From an uncultured Bacilli bacterium (GTDB lineage: Bacteria > Bacillota_I > Bacilli_A > RF39 > UBA660): a stretch of DNA of 56,198 nt. The notes below the pieces were generated by a model that saw only the letters and a list, made by a program, of their open reading frames with translations, did not search any database and was not told where the DNA came from. The position numbers were made by a program, and so were the translations under genes. The stretch spans positions 1-56,198 of the forward strand of contig CANQGF010000001.1 in the NCBI GenBank assembly GCA_947601485.1, in the 5' to 3' direction. Below, piece by piece: positions 38,268 to 50,483 of this stretch; within the stretch, counting starts at the first letter, position 1, and every line of letters starts with the position of its first letter.

Positions 38268-38432
38268 TACTTATCCATCCTATCTTTATAACTAATATAT
38301 CTTTAGTATTTCCATTTTCAGTTTATCATATACGCATTGCTTTTTGCAAGCTATAACTAGAGAATATTAACATATTTTAGAGATGTTATATTTTACCAGT
38401 TGTCTTTTTAAGAAAATATACTATAATAATAT

Positions 38433-38446
38433 TGAACAAACGTTTG
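38433..38446 (+). promoter_or_regulatory. Candidate LexA (Cheo/SOS) box
   Basis: tGAACaaacGTTTg lies between TATAAT (38422-38427) and the RBS GGAGG (38446-38450). The Firmicute consensus is CGAAC-N4-GTTCG. Confidence 0.5.
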
Positions 38447-38455
38447 GAGGATAAT

Positions 38456-39706
38456 ATGGAAGAAAGAGATATTTTATGTATTGATTTAAAAAGTTTTTTT
38501 GCTTCTTGTGAGTGTGTAGAAAGACACTTAGACCCTTTTTCTTATCCTCTAGTTGTAGCTAGTACCAAACAAGGAAATGGTGCTATTACTTTAGCTATTA
38601 CTCCCTACCTTAAAAGTAAAGGTTTAAAATCAAGAGGTAGACTTTATGAAATACCTAAAAATATTAAATATACTATTGTTCCTCCTCGGATGAGCCTTTA
38701 TATAAAAAAAAGTAAAGAAGTAGTTAGTATTTATTTAGATTATGTTTCAGAAGATGATATGCATATTTATTCAATTGATGAAGTTTTTTTAGATGTTACA
38801 GAATATTTAAATTTATATAAGAAAACTTCTTATGAATTAGCCGAAACTATTTTAAAAGATATTTATAAGAAAACAGGTCTTACTGCTACCTGTGGAATTG
38901 GTCCTAATCTTTTATTAGCTAAAATTGCGATGGATACAGAAGCAAAGAAATATAAAAATGGGATTGCTAAATGGAGTTTTGAAGATATCCCTACGAAATT
39001 ATGGCCACTTAGTCCTTTATCTAAAGTTTGGGGTATTGGTAGTAGGATGGAAAAAAGATTAAATGCTTTAAATATTTTTTCCATCTATGACCTAGCCCAC
39101 TACCCTAAAAATAAGTTAAAAGATAAATTTGGGGTTATGGGTGAAGAATTATGGAACCATGCTAATGGCATTGATTTAAGTAGAATAAGCGACTACAAAA
39201 ATATAGCTAAAGATAAATCTATTAGTCATAGTCAAGTTTTATTTAAAGATTATAATGGTAATAATATTCGTTTAATTATTGCCGAAATGACTGATGTTTT
39301 AATGCAAAGATTAAGAGAAGAAAAAAAGCAAACTAGTTGTGTTGGTTTAGGTATAGGTTATTCTAAAAATATAGGTGGAGGTTTTTACCATGTAACTAAA
39401 TTAGATAATCCTACTGATGATGTTAAAGTTATTTTAAATACTATTTATCTTCTTTTTGATAAATATTATGATAATCTTCCTATTCGTAAAGTTAGTTTAT
39501 GTTTTTCAAGACTTAGTGAAAAAAAGATGGTTCAATTGAATATTTTTGAAACAATTAACCATATTAATACCGAAGAAAACTATAATAAGACAATTGATGA
39601 AATTAAAAATAAATTTGGGAAGAATAGTATTTTAAAAGCAACAGCTTTATTAGAAGATTCTACTGCTATCTCCCGTAATCAAAAAATAGGAGGTCATGAA
39701 CAGTGA
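38456..39706 (+). CDS. Y-family DNA polymerase (UmuC/UvrX/DinB-like)
   Basis: ILCIDLKSFFASCE N-terminus and SIDEVFLDVT catalytic motif. ATG at 38456 after GGAGG (the tracked TTG at 38432 overlaps the SOS box). Confidence 0.88.
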   Translation: MEERDILCIDLKSFFASCECVERHLDPFSYPLVVASTKQGNGAITLAITPYLKSKGLKSRGRLYEIPKNIKYTIVPPRMSLYIKKSKEVVSIYLDYVSEDDMHIYSIDEVFLDVTEYLNLYKKTSYELAETILKDIYKKTGLTATCGIGPNLLLAKIAMDTEAKKYKNGIAKWSFEDIPTKLWPLSPLSKVWGIGSRMEKRLNALNIFSIYDLAHYPKNKLKDKFGVMGEELWNHANGIDLSRISDYKNIAKDKSISHSQVLFKDYNGNNIRLIIAEMTDVLMQRLREEKKQTSCVGLGIGYSKNIGGGFYHVTKLDNPTDDVKVILNTIYLLFDKYYDNLPIRKVSLCFSRLSEKKMVQLNIFETINHINTEENYNKTIDEIKNKFGKNSILKATALLEDSTAISRNQKIGGHEQ

Positions 39707-40017
39707 ACGACCGTGGGATAATAAAATGGCAACCTTTTGCCTCTTTAATTTCTTCTAAAGAAGTTATTAATTCTATTTTAAAAGGCAAAAATAAAATAGA
39801 AAAGCCAATATTATCTTCCGACCAATTAGAAACTTTAAATGCCCTTTTAAAAGAAAGTTATTACACCCAATCCCAAACTATTATTTATTATTTTAAAAAT
39901 AATCAAATATATAAAATCACGGGTATTATAACGGAAATCAATCAAAATACTAAGATTATTACTATAAATAAACAAATAAAATTACATATTTCGCAAATTT
40001 TACAAATAAACACTTGA
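39703..40017 (+). CDS. YolD-like protein
   Basis: GIIKWQPFASL N-terminal motif. Overlaps the polymerase stop, the usual partner arrangement. Confidence 0.7.
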   Translation: MNDRGIIKWQPFASLISSKEVINSILKGKNKIEKPILSSDQLETLNALLKESYYTQSQTIIYYFKNNQIYKITGIITEINQNTKIITINKQIKLHISQILQINT

Positions 40018-40056
40018 TTTTAGTTTCATAATTTGGTAATATTAATTTGTTCGTTT

Positions 40057-40133
40057 GGGGAATTAGCTCAGCTGGCTAGAGCACCACGTTTGCACCGTGG
40101 GGGTCAAGGGTTCGAATCCCTTATTCTCCACCA
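40057..40133 (+). tRNA. tRNA-Ala (anticodon UGC)
   Basis: Acceptor ggggaat/attctcc with G3:U70, loop tt-TGC-ac, encoded CCA. Confidence 0.93.
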
Positions 40134-40211
40134 AATTGATATTAAACTCGAAACTCGAGTAAAAATATAAAACGACTTGTAGTAAAGTCGTTTTTATGTT
40201 ATGATGGATAT

Positions 40212-40320
40212 GTCAAGGAAACTTGCATAAAATAAAAAAGGAACATTTAATATTGTCTGTGTTGAGTGTTGCCAAAAAGTTGGTTCACCTAAATCATTGC
40301 TGAGTTAGGTGATTTTCTTT
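40212..40320 (+). ncRNA. Antitoxin-type sRNA, unit A
   Basis: Promoter TTGTAG (40177-40182), 17 nt, TATGAT (40200-40205). Terminator tcacctaa/ttaggtga (40285-40312) plus T-run ending at the toxin stop codon. Antisense to the toxin mRNA 3' region. Confidence 0.55.
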
Positions 40321-40402
40321 ATATTAAAACTATAAATAGTAATAATACTAATAGGAAGATAAGAATTACTAGAGAAAGAATTAAAAAATCCTTCTTGTTC
40401 AT
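40319..40402 (-). CDS. Type I toxin peptide A, 27 aa (MNKKDFLILSLVILIFLLVLLLFIVLI)
   Basis: ATG 7 nt after GGGAGG. Short basic N-terminus followed by one TM helix. Confidence 0.65.
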   Translation of the reverse strand: MNKKDFLILSLVILIFLLVLLLFIVLI

Positions 40403-40462
40403 TATATCGCCTCCCTTCTTTAGAAGTTCGGCAATCACCCAACTATTAAATGTTCCTAATAA

Positions 40463-40491
40463 ATTATATCAAACAAATGTTCCTAACACAA
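40463..40491 (-). promoter_or_regulatory. Promoter of toxin A mRNA
   Basis: Minus strand: TTGTGT (40491-40486), 17 nt, TATAAT (40468-40463). The +1 at about 40457 is the first base of the 5' arm AGGAACAUUUAAUA. Confidence 0.6.
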
Positions 40492-40562
40492 TGTTTTTAT
40501 ACTGAATTTTAAATTTAGAAAGCATACTTGATAAAGGTGTGTTTTTATGTTACGATGAATAT

Positions 40563-40673
40563 GTCAAGGAAACTTGAATAAAATAAAAAAGGGAATACTT
40601 AACAGCGTGATGTTGAGTACTCGCCAATACTTTGGGGAGCACTTAATCTTGTTAGATTGAGTGCTTTTCTTTT
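40563..40673 (+). ncRNA. Antitoxin-type sRNA, unit B
   Basis: Promoter TTGATA (40528-40533), 17 nt, TACGAT (40551-40556). Terminator agcacttaatct/agattgagtgct (40638-40665) plus T-run. Confidence 0.55.
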
Positions 40674-40683
40674 ACATAGTATA

Positions 40684-40767
40684 CTATATTACAAAAGTAA
40701 AAAGTAAGGCTATTAGTAAAAAGATAATAAGAATAAGTGATAAGATTAAAAAATCTTTCTTAGACAT
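40684..40767 (-). CDS. Type I toxin peptide B, 27 aa (MSKKDFLILSLILIIFLLIALLFTFVI)
   Basis: ATG 8 nt after GGAGG. Paralog of peptide A. Confidence 0.65.
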   Translation of the reverse strand: MSKKDFLILSLILIIFLLIALLFTFVI

Positions 40768-40828
40768 ACTATCAGCCTCCTTCCTTTTAGAAGTTGGCAA
40801 GCACTCAACTGCCAAATATTCCCAATAA

Positions 40829-40857
40829 ATTATACCAAACAATTGTTCTTGACACAA
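40829..40857 (-). promoter_or_regulatory. Promoter of toxin B mRNA
   Basis: Minus strand: TTGTGT (40857-40852), 17 nt, TATAAT (40834-40829). The +1 at about 40823 begins the 5' arm GGGAAUAUUUGGCAG. Confidence 0.6.
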
Positions 40858-40930
40858 TGTTTTTATAAGAATTTATGACAATTTCAAAAGCACACTTGAT
40901 AAAGGTGTGTTTTTATGTTACGATGGATAT

Positions 40931-41040
40931 GTCAAGGAAACTTGAATAAAGAGAAAAGGATACATTTGATTGGGGAAATCAAATGCAATCCCTTATGGAG
41001 TGCATCTGAAATCAACTATTGTTGAAATCAGATGCTTTTA
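40931..41040 (+). ncRNA. Orphan antitoxin-type sRNA, unit C (no toxin ORF)
   Basis: Same promoter as unit B (TTGATA 40896-40901, 17 nt, TACGAT 40919-40924) and the same 5' sequence gtcaaggaaacttgaataaa. Own terminator gcatctgaaatcaac/gttgaaatcagatgc (41002-41035). The toxin RBS and ORF are missing downstream. Confidence 0.45.
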
Positions 41041-41098: not shown

Positions 41099-42487
41099 TT
41101 ATTCATCTAATAAATCTAGTGAATTTTTATATTCAGCTATTTTTTCTTTGTATTCATTTATTTTTTCTTCATATAATTCTTTTTGTTCGGCATTTAAAAT
41201 TACTTCTTCATTGTATTTTTCTTCCCAGTCTTTTATTTCTAACTCTTTTTGATTTAACTCAGTTTGTAATTTATTTAAATAACTATTACGTTCTTTAGCT
41301 TGGTATTCTTCTTGATTAGCTAATAATTTTTCAATATTATTTTTAGAAGTAATTACTTTAATTTCACTTAAACATAAATCATTATAATTATGAATTTGTT
41401 TTTTTCGTAAATCTGCAATAATTAAATTAAATATAGTTTGACCGGAAGCTTTAGGTTGTTTATGAATAGTAACTACCCCATCACTAACATTTAATTCATA
41501 ATTACTAAAATCTTTATAATAACTAATTTCAATTTTAATATTATCATTTAAACTATTATCTTCTATATAAGATATTTGTCTAGCATTTAAAATAAGTAAA
41601 TTATCTTGCATAGGATATTCTTTAGTATCTACTACTTGAGAAATATTATCAGGTGCTTTATCTATATATTTAAAATTAGCAATATCTAAAGAAGTAATTC
41701 CTAAACCAATACCTAATACTACTACACCAGATATTAAACTGATAAATGTTTTTTTAGATGGTTTTTTAATATTAAAAATAAAGTTAAATAATATTTCTAA
41801 AATAATTATATTTAAACTTAATACACCTAAAATACTAAGTATGACACCTAGATAAAATACTTTTTGAAAAATTAAAGAGATGGAAAGAGCTAGAAGTATA
41901 GCTACAAATAATAAAGAAATAATAAAAGGAATAGCTATAATTATAGCAATAAATTTAAGAAAACAAATTCCTAATTTCCCCAGAAAATCTAATATACTTA
42001 TATTTTTAGAAGTTTTTATATTAGTTTTAGTTTCATTAGTTATAATTTTAATATCTTTATGTTCTTCTTGTTTATTTAGATATTTTCTTTGAAATATATT
42101 AATAAATATAGCAAGACATATAACGATATAACTTACTTGTAAAACTACTTCCCAAACATTACCTACAAATTCTCCTAAAATAGGAATTTGCCATAAAAAG
42201 TCTCTTCCCATTTTTATTATTATATTAACAGGAATACAACATAAAATGAAAATGCCAAATATAAATACTAAAAATACTAGGAATTTGAGAAAATCTTTAA
42301 ATTTTAGATGACTAAAATAATTTAAAGTATCATCAAAGAATTTAATGACTTTATCAATATAAGTTTCTAAATTTCTTTTTGGCGTAGCTTGATTTAATTT
42401 AACTTCATTATTAACGAGTTCATCTAAAGTACATCCAAAGATTTTACTCATTGCAATTATTTTATCCATTTCCGGATAGGCAGTACC
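41099..42487 (-). pseudogene. 3' portion of an XRE-HTH membrane protein gene split by element insertion
   Basis: The frame reads G-TAYPE-MDKIIAMSKIFGCTLDELV..., which is the second half of an XRE HTH domain. Multiple TM helices and a coiled-coil tail follow. There is no RBS or plausible start of its own upstream of MDKII. Confidence 0.8.
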
Positions 42488-44162
42488 TGTTTACTTGTTC
42501 AAATGACACAAGCTCATTTTTGTTTCCTTTTTTGTTAGAATAAGTTAAAAATCTTTCTTCACCTGTTTTTAAAACAAATCTTATTATTTTAGGATTTTTA
42601 TTTTTGTTTTCATCATAGCCACCAATGATAATTTTTTCTACTATACTATCAAATGCCTCTTTATCAAATTGCTTTAAAGTGGTTGGTTCTTCAAATATTT
42701 TTTCTATTTCTCCAATTTGTTTAGTTAAAGTTTTATTTTCACTTTCTAACATTTCGTAATTTTTTATTTCTTCTTTAATTAAATCCAATTTCTCATTTAT
42801 TTCTTTTTCTTTTGAAATATATGCCTCTTTATGCTCGTAATCATCTAATTTCATATCAATTAAATTTGATAATCTTTTTTGTAGGGTATTTTTTTCATTA
42901 TTTAAGTTATCAAGTTTTTTCTTATAATCATTATCACTTATAACTTCTTTAATAGCATTTATCATTAAATCTTTGGTCTTATATTTATTTTTTATTATAG
43001 AGTTATACATTTGAACAAATGCACTTTCTAATAATTCTTCTCTTATAAGTAAAGCATCTTCGCAATTTTTTACATTAACTACTTTATTATAACAACTCCA
43101 ATAGACTACTTGGCTTCCATTTTTTCGTTTGCTACTAACTCTACGTGCATAATTTGTTCCACAAAATCCACATTCTATTTTGCTACTAAAAGCATATCTT
43201 TGACTAAATTTACCAAAATGTTGTTTACCATTAGGTATTATCTTATTTCTTCTTTTTTCTAATATTTCTTGTGCTTTTTCCCAAACTTCACGAGATATTA
43301 TTGCCTTATGATGATTTCTAACACGATATAGTTCTTTTTCTCCATAATTTCTTACTTTTTTATGAGTTAAAGGACTAATAGTGTAATTCTTTTGTCCTAA
43401 TAAATCACCAACATATTTTTCTTGCGAAATCATAGTTCTTACGTATTGTTGCGACCATTTCTTACCACCTGGCGATTTTACACCCATTTCATTTAATTTA
43501 TTGGCTATTATTCTTGATCCGATACCATCACAATACCAATTAAAAACCTTTCTTACAATTTCGGCTTCTTCTTCATTAATAGTTAGTTCTTTAGTTTCTT
43601 TGTTCCAATTATACCCATAAGGGTTTGCTTTACCGACAGGTTCACCATTTTTCATTTTGGCTCTTAATCCCATTGTTACATTTTGTGAAGTTGATTCACT
43701 TTCTGCTTGTGCAAATGCACTATAAAGAGTTAAAAACATCTCACTATCTAAATTAAGTGTGTGTATATTTTCTTTTTCAAAATATACATCTATTTTCTTA
43801 TCCCGTAAATCACGTACATATTTTAAAGTATCAACAACATTTCTAGCAAATCTTGATATAGATTTTGTAATGATTACATCAATCTTACCATTCATAGCGT
43901 CATTTATCATTCGTAAAAATTCTGTCCTGTTTTTTACTCTTGTTCCACTAATACCCTCATCAGCGTAAATACCTACAAACTCCCATTCAGAATTGGCTTT
44001 GATTTTTTCAGTATAATATCTTATTTGAGATTCATAACTTGTTAGTTGTTCTTCACTATCAGTACTAACTCTCGCATAAGCGCATACCTTTTTCTTTTTA
44101 CTTAAGGAAACATTAACGTTTTCAGTTTTGAGATTAGGTTTAATAATCTCAACCTGTGTCAT
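42462..44162 (-). CDS. Large serine recombinase
   Basis: N-terminal resolvase domain (VCAYARVSTDSEEQLTSYESQ, catalytic Ser), recombinase domain, Zn-ribbon (CGFCG...WSCY) and a coiled coil. The last 7 codons and the stop lie in host DNA beyond attL. Confidence 0.92.
   Translation of the reverse strand: MTQVEIIKPNLKTENVNVSLSKKKKVCAYARVSTDSEEQLTSYESQIRYYTEKIKANSEWEFVGIYADEGISGTRVKNRTEFLRMINDAMNGKIDVIITKSISRFARNVVDTLKYVRDLRDKKIDVYFEKENIHTLNLDSEMFLTLYSAFAQAESESTSQNVTMGLRAKMKNGEPVGKANPYGYNWNKETKELTINEEEAEIVRKVFNWYCDGIGSRIIANKLNEMGVKSPGGKKWSQQYVRTMISQEKYVGDLLGQKNYTISPLTHKKVRNYGEKELYRVRNHHKAIISREVWEKAQEILEKRRNKIIPNGKQHFGKFSQRYAFSSKIECGFCGTNYARRVSSKRKNGSQVVYWSCYNKVVNVKNCEDALLIREELLESAFVQMYNSIIKNKYKTKDLMINAIKEVISDNDYKKKLDNLNNEKNTLQKRLSNLIDMKLDDYEHKEAYISKEKEINEKLDLIKEEIKNYEMLESENKTLTKQIGEIEKIFEEPTTLKQFDKEAFDSIVEKIIIGGYDENKNKNPKIIRFVLKTGEERFLTYSNKKGNKNELVSFEQVNRYCLSGNG
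42485..42488. other. attL crossover core (ACCT on the + strand)
   Basis: The same 4 nt occur at 48513-48516. The host reading frame is restored exactly when the two copies are merged. Confidence 0.6.
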
Positions 44163-44254
44163 TTTACCTCTCTTTCTTTAGTTAATATTCTTAAATGAAT
44201 ACATCAAAAGTATTCATTTACATTATACCTTATTTTTTTACTAATCGGTAGCAT

Positions 44255-44419
44255 TTAATAAAAACTTTGTACTCTTTCTTTTAAAACATAATATTGTTTT
44301 TCGTTAATTAAATTCAATTTTAATAATCTTGATAGAATAGACATATTTATTGATTTATCAATAATATTATCTATTTCTAGTTGTGTTAAATTCTTTTCTT
44401 TAATATCATCTTCTTTCAT
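44255..44419 (-). CDS. Small protein (54 aa), unknown
   Basis: ATG after GAGGGGG, not in the ORF track. Sequence: MKEDDIKEKNLTQLEIDNIIDKSINMSILSRLLKLNLINEKQYYVLKERVQSFY. Confidence 0.5.
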   Translation of the reverse strand: MKEDDIKEKNLTQLEIDNIIDKSINMSILSRLLKLNLINEKQYYVLKERVQSFY

Positions 44420-44767
44420 ATTTGATTTTCCCCCTCTCTTTTTTATATTTTATACTTTTTTAACATACTAATCTCATTCCTTTCGTTAATTGCTTTCTTT
44501 TAATATTAAATCTCTTATAATTTTCCTACACTCATAAAAAACATATTTACTACAAATTACTAACTAAAAAAGTCAATAATATCCCTATGAGGAATAAATC
44601 TCCTTTTAGTAATAATTTGAGCTATAACATATATATTTTATTTATTATAGTTCTTTGAAATATGTTATAGTTCAAACTTGTATTCATCTTATATTTTTAT
44701 AAGATAGGTTCTGATATAAGCCTTAATATCTTACCGAGCCTCTTATAACTAGTGTTTATTAAACTTT

Positions 44768-45025
44768 CTAGTTAAGTGTTATTGTGTACATTCCATTAGA
44801 ATATTCCTTGTATATTAGATATTTTAATTCTTCTAATATTTTAAGGTTTTTTCTCAAGCCAATATTTTTGATGTTAATTACTTGTTGTATCTCTCCAACA
44901 TTTATATCTGTAAGAATTTTATCAAATCCTTTGCTATAAATATATGAGTAGATTAACTTTGCTTCTTTTGGAATTCTTTTATCTTTCCAAATTTCTTGTG
45001 GTACTTCTAGTTGTCTTAATCTCAT
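44768..45025 (-). CDS. Small winged-helix-like DNA-binding protein (85 aa)
   Basis: RBS AGGAGG. Transcribed divergently from the XRE gene. A role as regulator or directionality factor is inferred only. Confidence 0.6.
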   Translation of the reverse strand: MRLRQLEVPQEIWKDKRIPKEAKLIYSYIYSKGFDKILTDINVGEIQQVINIKNIGLRKNLKILEELKYLIYKEYSNGMYTITLN

Positions 45026-45050
45026 TCATAACATTCCTCCTTTCTTTTGA

Positions 45051-45138
45051 TGACTTTTACATCAATTACCATTAGTCTAGCACTATATTTTGAGTTTGTC
45101 AACATTATAATTATAATATTGTTGATTTTTACATCAAT
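45051..45138. promoter_or_regulatory. Divergent control region with repeated operator-like sites
   Basis: Direct repeats tga[c/t]ttttacatcaat at 45051-45066 and 45123-45138. Inverted repeat tcaaca(45099-45104)/tgttga(45120-45125). Extended -10 TGtTATACT at about 45142-45150. Confidence 0.45.
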
Positions 45139-45182
45139 ATGTGTTATACTTGTTTTAGCAAACGAATAGGAGGTGTTTAAAA

Positions 45183-45779
45183 ATGTTAAAGAAAAATACA
45201 ACTAAACTTGGTAAAACTATATGTGAAGCAAGAGAAAAAATAGGTATTTCACAAAGAGAACTAGCAAGACAAGCAAATATGGATTGTGCGGAAGTATCAA
45301 GAATAGAAGCTGGTAAAAGATTAAAGCCAAATGTTTTATATTTAAAAGGAATTGCTGATACATTAAATTTAAGTATGGTCGAATTAATGAAACTTGCAGG
45401 ATATAGCGATATAGATATAAATTTAGGACAAGATCTTCCAAATAAAAGATCTACTTCTGATTATCAAAAACAAATCCAAAGTTATGAACAATTTTATTTT
45501 GATGTTTTAGAAGAATTAGAAAATAGAAGAAAGGTTGACTTTGCTATTAAGGGTGGTATTGCAGATATAATAGATAATATAGAGTTATCTAAAATAGAAA
45601 AAAAAGAAATATCAAATGATGAAATATTGGATAGATTAAAAGAGTTGATCCCAATGATAAGACCTAATTTAGAAAAATTTGATAAATCTAAATATCCATT
45701 ATTTGATAAAGGAGTATTTCCCAAAAAAGATTTAAAATCAAATATTAAGTATAATTCTATTACAGATAATAAAGAATAA
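45183..45779 (+). CDS. XRE-family transcriptional regulator (198 aa)
   Basis: HTH ISQRELARQANMDCAEVSRIEAG. RBS AGGAGG. Confidence 0.8.
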   Translation: MLKKNTTKLGKTICEAREKIGISQRELARQANMDCAEVSRIEAGKRLKPNVLYLKGIADTLNLSMVELMKLAGYSDIDINLGQDLPNKRSTSDYQKQIQSYEQFYFDVLEELENRRKVDFAIKGGIADIIDNIELSKIEKKEISNDEILDRLKELIPMIRPNLEKFDKSKYPLFDKGVFPKKDLKSNIKYNSITDNKE

Positions 45780-45967
45780 TTTTTTCAAAACAAAAAATAA
45801 TCTTTTTGCCATTAAACATAAAGATTATTTTTATATAAAATATATACAGAATTTTAAAATAGGATTTTTCCTTTTCCCACCGTTATTGGCTTGCCAATAG
45901 CGTAGTGGGTTACCGTTTTGGAAAAATGGTCTATTAAAATTCAATACCAATAAATCATGAATTTTAC

Positions 45968-46876
45968 TTAATTATGTATTTTGGAATTAGCTAATTTTAA
46001 TTTTTTGGTTTCGCTTAAATCTTGTTCAAGCCAAGATTGTAAATTAATCGTTTCCATATTAAAATCTAGTTTATTTTCACCTATTTTATCCTTAGGAACA
46101 TCAAGTATTTTTAATAAGTTTAACGATAAATCTGATAAATTCATTTCATTTTTTTCAATAGTTTCAATGTCCCTGTATTGTTCAAAACCTTCTACTATTT
46201 TGAACCCCTTTTCATTAAGTAATAAATTAATAATTTTATATAATTCTTTATTCCATTTTTCTATTTCTTCTTTATCTTGTCCAAGATGTTGAATAATATC
46301 AATTGGAAACGGTCTAGTTTTTTTATCTATATGCATATTAATACATTCATCAATATTTATCATAATACTTTTCAAATAAGAATGAACTTCTGGGTATTCA
46401 AAATCCAATATTTTCATTTGATAAGCATTTAAAAAATATTGTTCAATTTGCATTCCTAAAAATTTGATATACGCTAATAAAGATATATAAGTATTTTCGT
46501 GGCCGTCAACTACATATTTACCATTAACAATTATATGATTATTATAAAAATCAACTCGTTTAGCTAAATCTGCTATTTGCTTTAAACTAAAGTTTTGAAA
46601 AGGATATAGTAAATTCGACTCATTATTATAGTCAACATAGTTATATAAATCTCGATATTTTATTGCATATTCTTCAATACTTTTCATTTGATTACTATTA
46701 TTAAGTTTATGAATGCCAATTGTATTATAATTATCATCTAATAAAACAAAAATATCTGTTTTTGGAGAATTTAATATAATAATATCGTTATATACATTAA
46801 ATTCATTCCAGTCTAGTCCATAATCTACACATTTACTTCTGAAAGCCAAATCATCTCTTATTGTATTTTTATCCAT
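45968..46876 (-). CDS. Hypothetical cargo protein (302 aa), no family recognised
   Basis: Intact ORF with RBS AAGGAG. The largest non-mobility gene in the element. Confidence 0.75.
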   Translation of the reverse strand: MDKNTIRDDLAFRSKCVDYGLDWNEFNVYNDIIILNSPKTDIFVLLDDNYNTIGIHKLNNSNQMKSIEEYAIKYRDLYNYVDYNNESNLLYPFQNFSLKQIADLAKRVDFYNNHIIVNGKYVVDGHENTYISLLAYIKFLGMQIEQYFLNAYQMKILDFEYPEVHSYLKSIMINIDECINMHIDKKTRPFPIDIIQHLGQDKEEIEKWNKELYKIINLLLNEKGFKIVEGFEQYRDIETIEKNEMNLSDLSLNLLKILDVPKDKIGENKLDFNMETINLQSWLEQDLSETKKLKLANSKIHN

Positions 46877-46971
46877 AATTGAATACTCCTTTCAACTTAA
46901 AGTAATTTAATATATATACTATTCTACCATGCTTTTTCAATTATTACTACATGTTTTTAAACAATTTGTTT

Positions 46972-48267
46972 TTATAAATTCATATCATAATCTTCTTTTT
47001 CTTTTTCATCTTCGTAGTCTGAAAAATCTTTTTCAGTTTTATAATAATCTGGTACATTTGCATATTTAAATAAACTATCTTCTTTAGTTGTACCTGTGGC
47101 AATATCTTTTACATCTTCCATTTCAAAATCACAGTTGTCATAATATTTTTTAACTTCATTTTCAGTATAATCTTTAATATATTCTGTACCTATTTGTAAT
47201 AGTTTTCTGAAAAAATATTTGATAACATTTATTATTCTTTTTATTTGATACATTAAACTTTTGTTTTCTTCTTTTAATTTTTTGTTTCTTAATTTTAAAT
47301 TATCAACTTCTTTTTTGTATTTTTGATTTTCTTTCTCAAGTATTTTATATCCACTAGAATATCCATTTATCTCATCAAATACTTCATTTATTTTAGGTTG
47401 TAATTCTACAACTTTTTTTGATTCTTTAACTATTCTTTTCATAGTATTAAAAGTATCCACATTAACAATTACTTGATTTTTATTAAAAGGAATATTTTTA
47501 GTAACTTTCATTTGTTTAACAAATTCATCTATTGATTTATCAAGTCTATCATTTCTAACATTTAAATTTTCTTCTAATTTTCTATTTATCTTTTTATAAT
47601 CTTTAATTTTAATATGTTTTCTATCACTACCCTTAATACCTCTTTCTAAATCATAATCTTTATCAGTTAATCTTTTATAATATTTATCTTGTAGTTCTGA
47701 CAAATGTATTTTATCTTTTATGTATTTCTTTTTAGAAATAGTATATCTTTCACTATTAGTTCTTTTATCGTATTTTTTAATAAGTGGAACAACAATGCAA
47801 TGGATATGTGGTGTTTTTTCATCTAAATGTACTGTTGCATGTAAAATTTGTTCTCTAGTATATCCTAAATCTTTATAAACAAATTCCATACAAGTATCAG
47901 CCCATTTTTTTATATCATCTTTTGTCATATTTTTAAAGAATTCATTAGTAGCAGTAAATAGTAATTCATCAGCAACAACATTATTTGATTTATCTAACAT
48001 TTGTTTAAAAGTCTTTTTTCTATCTTCACGTTCTGTTTTCATTCTTTCCTCATGTTCTTTTCTATAATCTTTTACTATATTATAAAACCCTTTAACATAT
48101 TTATCTGTTAAAGGGACTAGTTCTATATTATCTTTACTTTTTTCTATATCTATATCTGGATTAGAATTATAAGAGTTTTTTTCTCTTTTATTATGTGATC
48201 CGATTTGTGCTAAATCGTTTATAGTCATTATCGGTTCACTTCTAAATATTGCATAATTTAAATTCAT
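46972..48267 (-). CDS. MobV-family relaxase (Mob/Pre)
   Basis: N-terminal HNKRE motif and HLDEKTPHIHCIVVP (HxDExxPHxH). Long coiled-coil C-terminus. RBS GGAGG. Confidence 0.88.
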   Translation of the reverse strand: MNLNYAIFRSEPIMTINDLAQIGSHNKREKNSYNSNPDIDIEKSKDNIELVPLTDKYVKGFYNIVKDYRKEHEERMKTEREDRKKTFKQMLDKSNNVVADELLFTATNEFFKNMTKDDIKKWADTCMEFVYKDLGYTREQILHATVHLDEKTPHIHCIVVPLIKKYDKRTNSERYTISKKKYIKDKIHLSELQDKYYKRLTDKDYDLERGIKGSDRKHIKIKDYKKINRKLEENLNVRNDRLDKSIDEFVKQMKVTKNIPFNKNQVIVNVDTFNTMKRIVKESKKVVELQPKINEVFDEINGYSSGYKILEKENQKYKKEVDNLKLRNKKLKEENKSLMYQIKRIINVIKYFFRKLLQIGTEYIKDYTENEVKKYYDNCDFEMEDVKDIATGTTKEDSLFKYANVPDYYKTEKDFSDYEDEKEKEDYDMNL

Positions 48268-48494
48268 ATATCAAACCTCCTATCTTTAAATCTATATAAA
48301 ATAAAAAGATATGCTTTTTTAAACATACCTTTTACCTAAATTCAAAACTGTTAAAATTTACTTTTATTTTGATATGGATACAATAATGTTAAAAATATCA
48401 CCAATTTCGATTTTTTTTGAAACTTCTAACTTCATATTTAAGTTATTATTTTTCCCTTTAAAATAAAGCAAATCTCTTATTTTTTTATTATGTG

Positions 48495-48626
48495 TCATTT
48501 GACAATGGAAACACCTAATTCCCATTTAGATACAGCTTGTCTAGAAACATTTAGCTTCTCTGCCAGTTGTTCTTGAGACATATGTTTTTCTTTTCTTAAT
48601 TTTTGAATATTATCACAAAATTTCAT
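48495..48626 (-). pseudogene. 5' portion of the split XRE-HTH membrane protein gene
   Basis: RBS GAGGTG followed by MKFCDNIQKLRKEKHMSQEQLAEKLNVSRQAVSKWELG, then 5 element-encoded codons and a stop. The HTH is cut in helix 3. Confidence 0.8.
48513..48516. other. attR crossover core (ACCT on the + strand)
   Basis: Identical to 42485-42488. Host codon GGT (Gly38) is shared by both junctions. Confidence 0.6.
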
Positions 48627-48709: not shown

Positions 48710-49231
48710 TTAGCCAATTATTCCCCCAATTATACCAAAAGATAATATCATCATAATAACACTAGCCATTAAGACTCCTATTAAAGCTGCTATTAATGAT
48801 TTCTTTTTATCCATCTCTAAAACTGAAGCAATTAAACAACCGGTCCAAGCTCCAGTACCAGGAAGTGGAACACCTACAAATAAAACTAGACCCCAAAAAC
48901 CATATTTTTCAATAGATTTTTTATGTTTTTTTACTTTTTTATCTAACCACTTTGCTACTTTTCTTATCCTTTTAAATTTGCAATTATGCATCCAATTTAA
49001 AATAGAATTCATAAACCATAATATAAAAGGAATTGGTAAGATATTGCCAATTATTGCAATAATATAACTAGATATAGGGTTCATTTTTAAAAGTGAGGCT
49101 GCAATAAGTCCTCCTCTTAATTCTAATATAGGCATTAAAGAAATTATAAATACTAATATTTCTTTACCAAATTTTAAAGAAGTAATACCTCCAAATAACC
49201 CTATAATACTTTTCACTAATTTATCTGCCAT
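48710..49231 (-). CDS. Small membrane protein of the putative small-multidrug-export family
   Basis: LELRGGLIAA motif and a 4-5 TM layout. Confidence 0.7.
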   Translation of the reverse strand: MADKLVKSIIGLFGGITSLKFGKEILVFIISLMPILELRGGLIAASLLKMNPISSYIIAIIGNILPIPFILWFMNSILNWMHNCKFKRIRKVAKWLDKKVKKHKKSIEKYGFWGLVLFVGVPLPGTGAWTGCLIASVLEMDKKKSLIAALIGVLMASVIMMILSFGIIGGIIG

Positions 49232-49965
49232 TATTCATCATCCTTTTTTATTTTTTTAATTATATCACTTACTTTAAAACGCGGAAAAGAATCGATAATT
49301 CTTTTGGTAAAGTAAGATTGTTCAGATAATACTTTACGGATTTTTTTATCAGGATTATTAAATCTATTTTTAAATGTTTTAATTTTACTTACTATTTTAT
49401 CTTTAACTTTTTTACTTACTTCTTCCGTATTATCTTTAATAATATTAGATGTAATTAATTTAATATTTGAAATAACCTTTAAAGATATAATTAAATCAGT
49501 TAAGAAAGTTAAAAAGATTAAATAAAATATCACATGTAATAAGGTTGGACTAACCATTTCTAGTAAATTACTAAAGAAAGGATTAATAAAATAAACTAAT
49601 AGACAACCAATTATCCCAAAAGGAACCATTGTCTCTAAACAAATACGTCCATTGATATTAAATTTATTTTGAGAATAATCCCACCATCTAATTTTAAAGA
49701 CTTTTTCTAAAACATAACTAGTTAAATACTCTAAGATCGAACAGATTAAAATAGCTAATATAAATAAGATAAAAGGTTGACTTTTATACCCTTTTAAAAA
49801 GAATATCATTAAAAGACTACCTACCCCATAGATAGGACATATCGGTCCAATTAAAAAGCCTCTATTCATTAATCTTTTACAATCAAAATAGTTATAGATA
49901 ACTTCCATAATCCAACCTACAAAAGAATAAATTATAAATAGTAAAAAATATATTTCTAAATTCAT
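49231..49965 (-). CDS. Membrane protein of the putative ABC-transporter type IV (CmpB-like) family
   Basis: IIYSFVGWIMEVIY and GPICPIYGVG motifs. Confidence 0.7.
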   Translation of the reverse strand: MNLEIYFLLFIIYSFVGWIMEVIYNYFDCKRLMNRGFLIGPICPIYGVGSLLMIFFLKGYKSQPFILFILAILICSILEYLTSYVLEKVFKIRWWDYSQNKFNINGRICLETMVPFGIIGCLLVYFINPFFSNLLEMVSPTLLHVIFYLIFLTFLTDLIISLKVISNIKLITSNIIKDNTEEVSKKVKDKIVSKIKTFKNRFNNPDKKIRKVLSEQSYFTKRIIDSFPRFKVSDIIKKIKKDDE

Positions 49966-50483
49966 AAGCGACTACCTTTACTTTTCTTAGATTTAACACC
50001 CACTAGCATTAAAAGTTTTTTAGGATATTTAAATACTTCTAAAGATACTATTTTATCTGCTAAAGTAACTATCCATCCTACTTTATAACGCGGTGGTTTA
50101 ATATTTAAGGGAAACATATGACGTAAGATAGCATTTTCAATCTCAGGGGTCATATATTTAGCAAAATATTGGCGAGCATTATCTTTGGCATTTTTAGCAT
50201 GCGTAAAACCATGTTGTTCAAAGAATTTATGCTTTTCTGGGTCATCTTGCCAAGGTTTCTCATAAAAATCATGCAATAATCCGGCTATAGCAGCACTTTT
50301 ATAATCAGTATGAAAAAAACGAGCAAGAGAATAAGCTTTTTTAGAAACTTTTAAACAATGGTCATATACAGTTATATCCCCATGATGAGCATATTTCTTT
50401 CTTTTTTGAAATTCGGGATGCTCAATTATTTCTTTAACTATTTCTTCATATTCCTTTTCTAATTGTTTTTTCATACTCACCAC
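49962..50483 (-). CDS. HD-domain phosphohydrolase-like protein
   Basis: H...HD motif (GLLHDFYE). Start uncertain: GTG at 50483 or ATG at 50474. Confidence 0.8.
   Translation of the reverse strand: MVSMKKQLEKEYEEIVKEIIEHPEFQKRKKYAHHGDITVYDHCLKVSKKAYSLARFFHTDYKSAAIAGLLHDFYEKPWQDDPEKHKFFEQHGFTHAKNAKDNARQYFAKYMTPEIENAILRHMFPLNIKPPRYKVGWIVTLADKIVSLEVFKYPKKLLMLVGVKSKKSKGSRL

Follow-up and report, generated by a model that had tools for sequence, protein, structure and literature searches.

A 56,198-nucleotide stretch of DNA from an uncultured Bacilli bacterium (positions 1 to 56,198 of contig CANQGF010000001.1, assembly GCA_947601485.1; hereafter the window) very probably harbours, at positions 42488-48513, an integrative mobilizable element (IME) that lies in an XRE-family gene and belongs to a subclade targeting the Gly codon of a WExG motif. 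The element, which is 6,026 bp long when measured between the two copies of a GG dinucleotide, encodes a large serine recombinase and a MobV relaxase, and it splits a 499-codon gene for an XRE helix-turn-helix (HTH) membrane protein. A preliminary description of the window had already proposed a serine-recombinase/MobV mobilizable element, which is borne out by Pfam and NCBIfam calls above cut-offs. It had also likened the arrangement to prophage-type regulatory switches, an idea that the relatives of the element argue against.

Results

A regulator gene split at a glycine codon, with empty and occupied alleles

The two fragments of the host gene, both read on the minus strand, lie on either side of the element (Table 1). 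The open reading frame (ORF) at 48626-48495 encodes MKFCDNIQKLRKEKHMSQEQLAEKLNVSRQAVSKWELG, 38 host residues ending in ..RQAVSKWELG, followed by five foreign residues and a stop; in the occupied state the frame of the 5′ fragment runs on to a TGA at 48495-48497. This ORF matches positions 1-35 of the 55 of Pfam HTH_3 (E=9.6e-13). The ORF at 42469-41099 begins in mid-domain, its frame being open upstream as G-TAYPE-MDKII, and the 3′ fragment encodes the second HTH half, a membrane region and a coiled-coil tail, with a match at 44 bits to positions 38-72 of a custom-built hidden Markov model (HMM) of the XRE N-terminal domain. Both ORFs, the nature of the fragments and the ACCT sequences at the two junctions (42485-42488 and 48513-48516) agree with the preliminary description, and so does the restored gene of about 499 codons that it had predicted: merging the fragments at their common GGT codon yields 1500 nt, that is 499 codons and a stop, without interruption. 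A search with the joined protein returned an intact protein of 498 aa (P0001) that is 99% identical over its full length, together with almost a thousand more distant relatives, likewise full-length and likewise composed of an HTH plus a membrane region.

The gene also exists without the element. Three metagenome contigs with an empty site (L001, L002 and L173; ERZ27249546, ERZ27249050 and ERZ27249059) are collinear with both flanks at 97-99% identity (97% for the 3′ fragment), which contradicts the possibility, entertained in the preliminary description, that the two halves are never contiguous in related strains. The BLAST pieces on these contigs overlap by exactly the 4-nt core, and the predicted attB, AAATGGGAATTAGGTACTGCCTATCCGGAAATGG, is found in them verbatim. 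The element therefore has both defined ends, with GG (within AGGT) at each, and an empty counterpart in relatives. The occupied allele recurs as well: the attL and attR junctions are each present at 99.2-100% identity, on separate contigs, in four more ENA samples (ERZ27249453, ERZ27249239, ERZ27249456 and ERZ27249248), and the attR junction additionally in three Logan runs (ERR10663694-6). Since the junction contigs end within the recombinase gene, no contig besides the window bears both junctions. The empty alleles, found in other samples and at low coverage, diverge from the window flanks by 2-3%. Judged from these sequences, empty and occupied alleles look like a polymorphism between strains, and there is no evidence for excision.

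A constant attachment-site plan

Relatives of the recombinase number in the thousands, the best being 55-95% identical and 552-592 aa long, the lengths varying with their host-encoded tails. Among named records, the nearest are gut metagenome-assembled genomes (MAGs) of uncultured Bacilli, Bacillales or 'Tenericutes'. We fetched 80 loci from species-representative genomes and 80 metagenomic loci, plus the contexts of selected proteins (about 170 loci). A backbone of orf44, hairpin, MobV, cargo, XRE/orf85, orf54 and recombinase, in which the cargo varies, is common to more than 10 of them.

The element-side flanks of the two junctions in the window are, as the preliminary description had noted, imperfect inverted repeats, with 18 of 22 positions matched in an ungapped alignment. 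The attP reconstructed from them, GTGTCATTTGAACAAGTAAACAGGTGTTTCCATTGTCAAATGACAC, has the length (~40-50 bp), the imperfect dyad and the non-palindromic 2-bp crossover of serine-integrase attachment sites: it is 46 bp long and follows a 22+2+22 nt plan, from GTGTCA.. to ..TGACAC, with a central dinucleotide. The outer AATGACAC of its right arm is kept in family members. In 12/12 complete elements this plan predicts equal dinucleotides at both ends, and since the chance expectation is 1/16 per match, plan and boundaries are secure. These elements represent nine att types, with the centres GG (four XRE types), CC, TG (two types), AA (two types) and GA. We infer that the crossover in the window takes place at the GG within its 4-nt identity, because attL and attR of one relative (L006) have only GG in common; those of another (L007) share AGG.

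Table 1. Features of the element and of the gene that it splits, in window coordinates
Feature	Coordinates	Strand	Basis or remark
Host gene 5′ fragment	48516..48626	-	Codons 1-37 of XRE-HTH membrane protein; ORF call, Pfam HTH_3
Central dinucleotide GG, attL	48514..48515	-	First two bases of Gly38 codon; within 4-nt core identity
attP right arm (element side of attL), TGTTTCCATTGTCAAATGACAC	48492..48513	-	Inverted repeat of left arm
orf44, 44-aa ORF (MTHNKKIRDLLYFKGK..VSISK)	48364..48498	-	Conserved protein in 12 loci
Conserved hairpin, AAGGTATG-N-CATATCTTTTT	48303..48331	-	~35 nt upstream of mobV; aligned in 13 family members
MobV (Mob_Pre) relaxase, 431 aa	46972..48267	-	PF01076, 108 bits (cut-off 25.5)
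302-aa ORFan, element-specific cargo	45968..46876	-	No Pfam, NCBIfam or PHROG match
198-aa XRE (HTH_3) regulator	45183..45779	+	Pfam HTH_3, E=5e-9; sole IME gene on opposite strand
85-aa ORF, divergent from XRE gene	44768..45025	-	Conserved in 26 loci
54-aa ORF (orf54)	44255..44419	-	Directly upstream of recombinase; tblastn hits in 45 loci
Large serine recombinase, 566 aa	42462..44162	-	Pfam Resolvase, Recombinase and Zn_ribbon_recom (PF00239, PF07508, PF13408)
attP left arm (element side of attR), GTGTCATTTGAACAAGTAAACA	42488..42509	-	Encodes recombinase C-terminus
Central dinucleotide GG, attR	42486..42487	-	Within 4-nt core identity
Host gene 3′ fragment	41099..42485	-	Third base of Gly38 codon to stop; in-frame join

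One codon of one domain in many different genes

Ranking the loci by the global identity of their recombinase core to the recombinase of the window separates two kinds of target. At 64% identity or more, the junction in 11/11 fetched loci (L171/L172, L005, L086, L087, L088, L003, L004, L089, L007 and L006) adjoins the second half of an XRE HTH, directly after the Gly codon; at 62% or less, every locus with a junction read adjoins something other than an XRE HTH. The custom HMM missed some half-domains, for example in L005, and those junctions were read by eye from translations. Host sequences past the junction read, for instance, G-LCLMDMSLLKPLSELLGVTINELL, G-KSKPDLEKLKLLSTLYNVPLNELL and G-ICMPDVSTIEELCKILNITINDLF, and in three loci (L006, L007 and L088) the first HTH half, ending in ..SKWERG or ..SKWENG, is present too, 9-10 kb upstream on the same strand. 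The 11 target genes are all different, with HTH-membrane, HTH-ABC ATPase (L006) and HTH-AAA_28 (L171) architectures; 95%-identical recombinases occupy at least two other genes (L005 and L171), and the 90%-identity cluster of the window's recombinase contains at least eight further distinct host-derived C-terminal tails. Altogether, 12/12 insertions of the subclade are at one codon of the XRE HTH.

Because these 11 insertions share one codon but not one gene, what is targeted is a conserved coding motif and not a particular gene that the element gates. The left half-site, ATCWAAATGGGAA, is fixed because the S-K-W-E codons specify it, and the window contains a single exact copy of the motif AAATGGGAANNNGG. 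Variants of orf44 that are 53 aa long and start with MG(K/T/M)(R/G/W) are a +1-frame reading of host AAATGGGAANNNGG and indicate further XRE insertions.

Gene content and predicted functions

The IME has seven ORFs, all uninterrupted. The preliminary description had listed its gene content correctly, including the XRE gene, the 54-aa ORF and the 302-aa ORFan; orf44 and the hairpin had escaped it. The recombinase, which has all three domains expected of the element's own integration and excision enzyme, sits at one end of the IME, facing outward. Its residues 560-566 and its stop codon are encoded by host DNA, and because these last seven codons and the stop lie outside the element, the left att arm (42509-42488) encodes the C-terminus VSFEQVN(R). 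Activity of the enzyme is predicted from conserved features: the motif YARVSTD is present, and R31, S33 and D35 of the catalytic region do not vary among 28 homologues. Among solved structures, the nearest is that of a catalytic domain from a conjugative-transposon recombinase (3g13, E=3e-55), and the nearest full-length one is SprA of SPbeta (9dxh, E=2e-18). The best curated-model matches in NCBIfam are Ccr and XisF recombinases, far under cut-offs, and the Pfam search gave no match to DUF4368.

The relaxase, which is encoded towards the other end of the IME, scores 120.4 bits with the NCBIfam MobV model NF041497 (cut-off 100), and its translation contains HLDEKTPHIH, in keeping with the metal-binding pattern HxDE..PHxH expected of MOBV relaxases. 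VirB4 and other mating-pore genes are absent, the products of orf44 and of the 54-, 85-, 198- and 302-aa ORFs having no conjugation-family match in Pfam, NCBIfam or PHROG; phage genes are likewise absent, and there is no resistance gene. Searches of plasmid and phage DNA with the entire element found no related element, only short matches of 65-68% identity to the recombinase and relaxase genes, and of the PLSDB protein matches none exceeds 41% identity for the recombinase or 47% for the relaxase. The conserved hairpin upstream of mobV, of which the window has one copy, forms a 13-bp stem when folded as single-stranded DNA, and its position makes it a candidate origin of transfer (oriT) and/or mob operator. 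It emerged only from the alignment of the family; a generic inverted-repeat search upstream of mob singled out no oriT.

The remaining genes are less easily assigned. The 302-aa ORFan has no tblastn hit in 165 related loci, and its 90% cluster consists of one member. The 198-aa XRE protein matches PHROG families of transcriptional regulators and repressors, and family members have homologues at the same position. The 85-aa ORF is possibly a winged-helix protein: it shows a weak similarity to DnaD-like loaders of PHROG, in their winged-helix N-terminal part (E=7.6e-5), and no Pfam match at E <= 0.01, the only one up to E <= 10 being a chance-level match to RNA_pol_Rpc34 (E=0.055, far under cut-off). 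The product of orf54 has no family match in Pfam, NCBIfam or PHROG. Wherever the locus was inspected, its gene adjoins the recombinase gene, even in elements whose cargo differs (L003 and L004), and it is a candidate recombination directionality factor (RDF) or partner of the recombinase. The six IME genes besides orf44 all have a GAGG or AGGAGG Shine-Dalgarno sequence. A promoter and terminator scan gave fewer promoter-like sites (56) than shuffled sequence did (63), which makes it uninformative for DNA as AT-rich as this, and an Rfam search found tRNAs only.

orf44 and a reading frame across attP

The small gene at the opposite end from the recombinase has properties of its own. Its product falls into 145 protein clusters, all of 40-77 aa, with a conserved ..DLLYFKG..VSV.K; it lacks a Shine-Dalgarno sequence, and its ATG lies inside the att arm as the mirror image of a CAT in the other arm. 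Nothing in Pfam, NCBIfam or PHROG matches it, a HMMER search returned six small proteins and no fused or annotated relative, and an AlphaFold2 model (pLDDT 62) contains a beta-hairpin only and is too weak for a fold search. When the circle is reconstructed, frame 0 of the recombinase is free of stops across attP into orf44 in 9/9 att types, and frames 1 and 2 are always closed. In one locus (L099) the orf44 ATG is missing and the frame is nonetheless open to the junction.

The excised circle may thus encode a recombinase of ~608 aa with orf44 as a C-terminal module that integration truncates, a tentative proposal that we regard as rather doubtful. Under it, the integrated copy would make a 559-aa core with a random host tail, orf44 would come to lie 6 kb away behind the promoter of the host gene, and two isoforms of the recombinase, one for each state, would provide a built-in control of directionality or expression. 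Speaking against it, no fused recombinase-orf44 protein occurs in the 145 orf44 clusters or among the top recombinase homologues; the in-frame relation between the two genes follows from the fixed 46-bp geometry; and where the insertion is in an XRE gene, the host 'AAATGGGA' contributes an ATG, upstream and in frame, that could also be the start. A related notion, that the recombinase in the circle has a conserved C-terminal extension, was dropped after a homology search with the 608-aa fusion gave no homologue that covers the extension.

Both ends of the element show stop/start overlaps with the host gene. At 48495-48498 the TGA of the host 5′ fragment overlaps the ATG of orf44 (ATGA), and the recombinase gene stops within the 456-aa ORF of the host 3′ fragment, 5 nt past the ATG of that ORF (ATGGATAA; 42462-42469). 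By their layout, these overlaps could permit translational coupling, including expression of a membrane protein without its HTH.

Neighbouring genes and variation within the family

Upstream of the split regulator, 83 nt away, are genes on the minus strand for an HD domain protein, an ABC_trans_CmpB-like protein and a small multidrug export protein (48710-50483). Transcripts begun at these genes could extend into the regulator gene and, where the allele is occupied, into orf44-mobV. Downstream, between a tRNA-Ala and the terminator of the host gene, there is a ~400-bp tandem direct repeat (40175-40592 and 40526-40959, 78% identical), noticed as secondary BLAST pieces, each copy of which has a small hydrophobic ORF (..KKDFLILSL(V/I)ILIFLL..; 40319-40438 and 40684-40857). 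Beside the same tRNA-Ala, at 38432-40133, are a 424-aa ORF resembling Y-family polymerases and an overlapping 104-aa ORF, whose product is marked as Pfam YolD on two collinear contigs (L174 and L175).

Several loci illustrate how the family varies. Recombinases that are 50-62% identical (L008, L090-L117, L135, L145 and L156-L158) keep the 22+2+22 plan with the centres CC, TG, AA and GA; their targets, judged by eye from translations, include RhuM-like (WKNSPDGPIYKYD), ORF6N-like (ATRDVAKLY..RFPEDF) and BRO-like (LNREPFKVWLAKLG) coding sequence, plus an antisense site. A 699-aa homologue of the recombinase (P0204) has a C-terminal Virulence_RhuM domain (PF13310), a fusion that apparently arises where the recombinase reading frame continues into that of its target gene. 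An orf54-recombinase module with 70-77% identity is likewise found with quite different cargo, comprising a type IV secretion system coupling protein and a sortase in L004 (1-11731), which resembles an integrative and conjugative element (ICE), and an ABC-transporter ATPase in L003 (2-7131); this suggests that integration modules are exchanged between IMEs and ICEs. In L114 (5648-14088), a second MobV gene follows ~2 kb downstream of the recombinase of the first element, which looks like a tandem accretion of two IMEs. In the closest complete relative (L088, 2589-3919; recombinase 82% identical), the MobV gene is split into ORFs of 290 and 153 aa, and this copy is probably decaying.

Discussion

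How the element may have inserted and spread

The simplest reading of these observations is an ordinary IME insertion that inactivates a regulator. In the mechanism that we propose, the recombinase would have joined a 46-bp attP, with 22-bp imperfect inverted arms around GG, to an attB in an XRE-family gene, the exchange taking place at the GG of a Gly codon in the 'S-K-W-E-x-G' turn of the HTH_3 domain. A conservative 2-bp exchange would have split the gene and left one GG at each end. The subclade would read the DNA that encodes the conserved motif, with the left half-site ATCWAAATGGGAA and a right half-site over the next 'x-x-P-D/E' codons, and if motif-coding DNA is what is recognised, close relatives would therefore land at the same codon in many XRE genes. 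Such a site would be a widely available, dispensable landing pad rather than a gene-specific switch. After excision, for which orf54 is the best candidate directionality factor if one is needed, the MobV relaxase would introduce a nick at the hairpin oriT ahead of its own gene, and a conjugative element in the same cell would provide the mating pore for transfer; expression would be under the control of the divergent XRE/85-aa pair.

The most attractive competitor is the regulatory switch of the preliminary description, in which a condition-triggered, reversible excision would switch on the XRE membrane regulator at times of need. In its favour, the insertion is conservative and keeps the frame, so that precise excision would restore the gene, the IME genes are on the strand of the host gene, and a switch has already been raised by analogy for serine-integrase IMEs (PMC5357655). 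We nevertheless consider a switch unlikely. Elements of the skin, SPbeta and comK kind would pair one lineage with one host gene, whereas recombinases 64-95% identical to that of the window, up to the 95%-identical one, are found at the same codon of 11 different XRE genes, which leaves no lineage-to-gene fidelity. The empty alleles belong to strains that are 2-3% divergent and were found in other samples, the excised form was not seen, and a relaxase points to a transfer life style, not to a domesticated switch.

That the element is instead a mobilizable transposon of the Tn4451/Tn4453 type, with low target specificity and present in the gene by chance, is very improbable, even though it is of equal size class, both have a large serine recombinase and a MobV relaxase (PMC5704250), and the recombinase lineage has many target genes. 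A chance landing does not fit 12/12 insertions at one codon of one domain with the left half-site conserved, and the nearest curated models of the recombinase, far under their cut-offs, are Ccr and XisF. An assembly chimera or a decayed, immobile remnant has next to nothing to recommend it. The contigs of other samples do break in the recombinase gene, a sign that repeated related elements confuse assemblers, but both junctions recur on independent contigs from several samples at near or full identity, the seven ORFs are intact and the catalytic motifs are conserved.

The IME interpretation has points to answer, too. Of the two junctions for which the preliminary description had proposed a search, the empty site was found as predicted and the attP junction of the circular form was not, with zero hits in a pattern scan of viral contigs and none among the fetched loci. 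No conjugative element is visible within the window, the ORF list of which is partly annotated. The crossover in the window itself narrows just to AGGT, the GG coming from relatives, and the target rule is based on 12 insertion events and the indirect evidence of protein tails. These points weigh against the interpretation, and it is with them taken into account that we hold it to be very probable.

The element is significant in several respects. It is a precisely mapped example of an IME, with a 46-bp attP, an attB and a central dinucleotide defined, and it is a member of a widespread, uncharacterised family of IMEs in gut Bacilli, the recombinases of which have evolved at least nine att types on a constant 22+2+22 plan. 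The Gly-codon rule explains how a dispensable site can be found in any new Firmicute host. For annotation, there is a caution that truncated XRE genes can mark the ends of IMEs, and related recombinases with known, differing sites are raw material for the discovery of genome-engineering tools.

Comparison with known systems

Gene-splitting elements include skin in sigK, SPbeta in spsM and the comK prophage of Listeria. The element in the window resembles them in its large serine recombinase (SpoIVCA in skin, SprA/SprB in SPbeta), in the in-frame splitting of a gene and in that conservative excision restores, or here would restore, that gene. However, they are (defective) prophages, each with one gene and one developmental or infection cue, whereas here the element is mobilizable and its relatives use many genes.

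Tn4451 ends in GA, in contrast to the central GG here, and tnpX is its first gene, served by a promoter formed at the joint, whereas the recombinase here lies at the 3′, outward-facing end. With Tn4451/Tn4453 (TnpX and TnpZ), the element shares a size of ~6 kb and the combination of a large serine recombinase with a MobV relaxase; it differs in gene order, in the position of the recombinase, in having no resistance gene and in target choice, which is of low specificity there and motif-specific here. Tn4451 is the studied prototype, an element of ~6 kb that excises as a circle, with a 2-bp crossover, an upstream oriT and low target specificity (PMC5704250).

There is a close likeness to the serine-integrase IMEs of Firmicutes in the classification of Guedon, Leblond-Bourget and Payot. 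IMEs of this kind, often with a MobV relaxase, that integrate within genes and disrupt them are an established class (PMC5704250, PMC5357655), and in Streptococcus suis one class of IME is found inside an HTH_XRE regulator gene (PMC5704250, PMC5357655, PMC7168690). The element in the window has in common with them its small size, a single outward-facing integrase at one end, a relaxase (often MobV) without mating-pore genes, site-specific integration that disrupts a gene, and very short direct repeats. An XRE-regulator gene is a recorded target class for them. The host here differs in being an uncultured, low-GC, Bacilli-type gut organism.

The use of many target genes has a parallel in the work of Durrant et al. 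2022, who distinguished single-target and multi-target clades of serine recombinases and found related recombinases in different target gene clusters (PMC10083194). Closely related recombinases with different target genes are thus common to both cases, but the multi-targeting clade there has DUF4368 and relaxed motifs, whereas here one domain-coding motif is shared. As for the frame across attP, archaea have self-splitting tyrosine integrases of the SSV type (PMC7253208, PMC8371274), in which the att site likewise lies within the integrase frame and integration alters the product. These belong to another enzyme superfamily and another domain of life, and here the extreme C-terminus alone would be affected, by a translation across attP that is only predicted. 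If true, the attP-spanning frame would be a new means by which a serine integrase detects whether it is integrated; it would match, among serine recombinases, the self-splitting integrases of the SSV type and would be a natural equivalent of the integrase-RDF fusions that have been engineered.

A term search of PMC5704250, PMC5357655 and PMC7168690 finds no mention of a same-codon rule across many XRE genes, and neither the text nor the available supplements of PMC10083194 mention an HTH or XRE target. The domain-codon rule over many genes and the constant 46-bp plan over nine specificities therefore seem to extend what these four papers describe.

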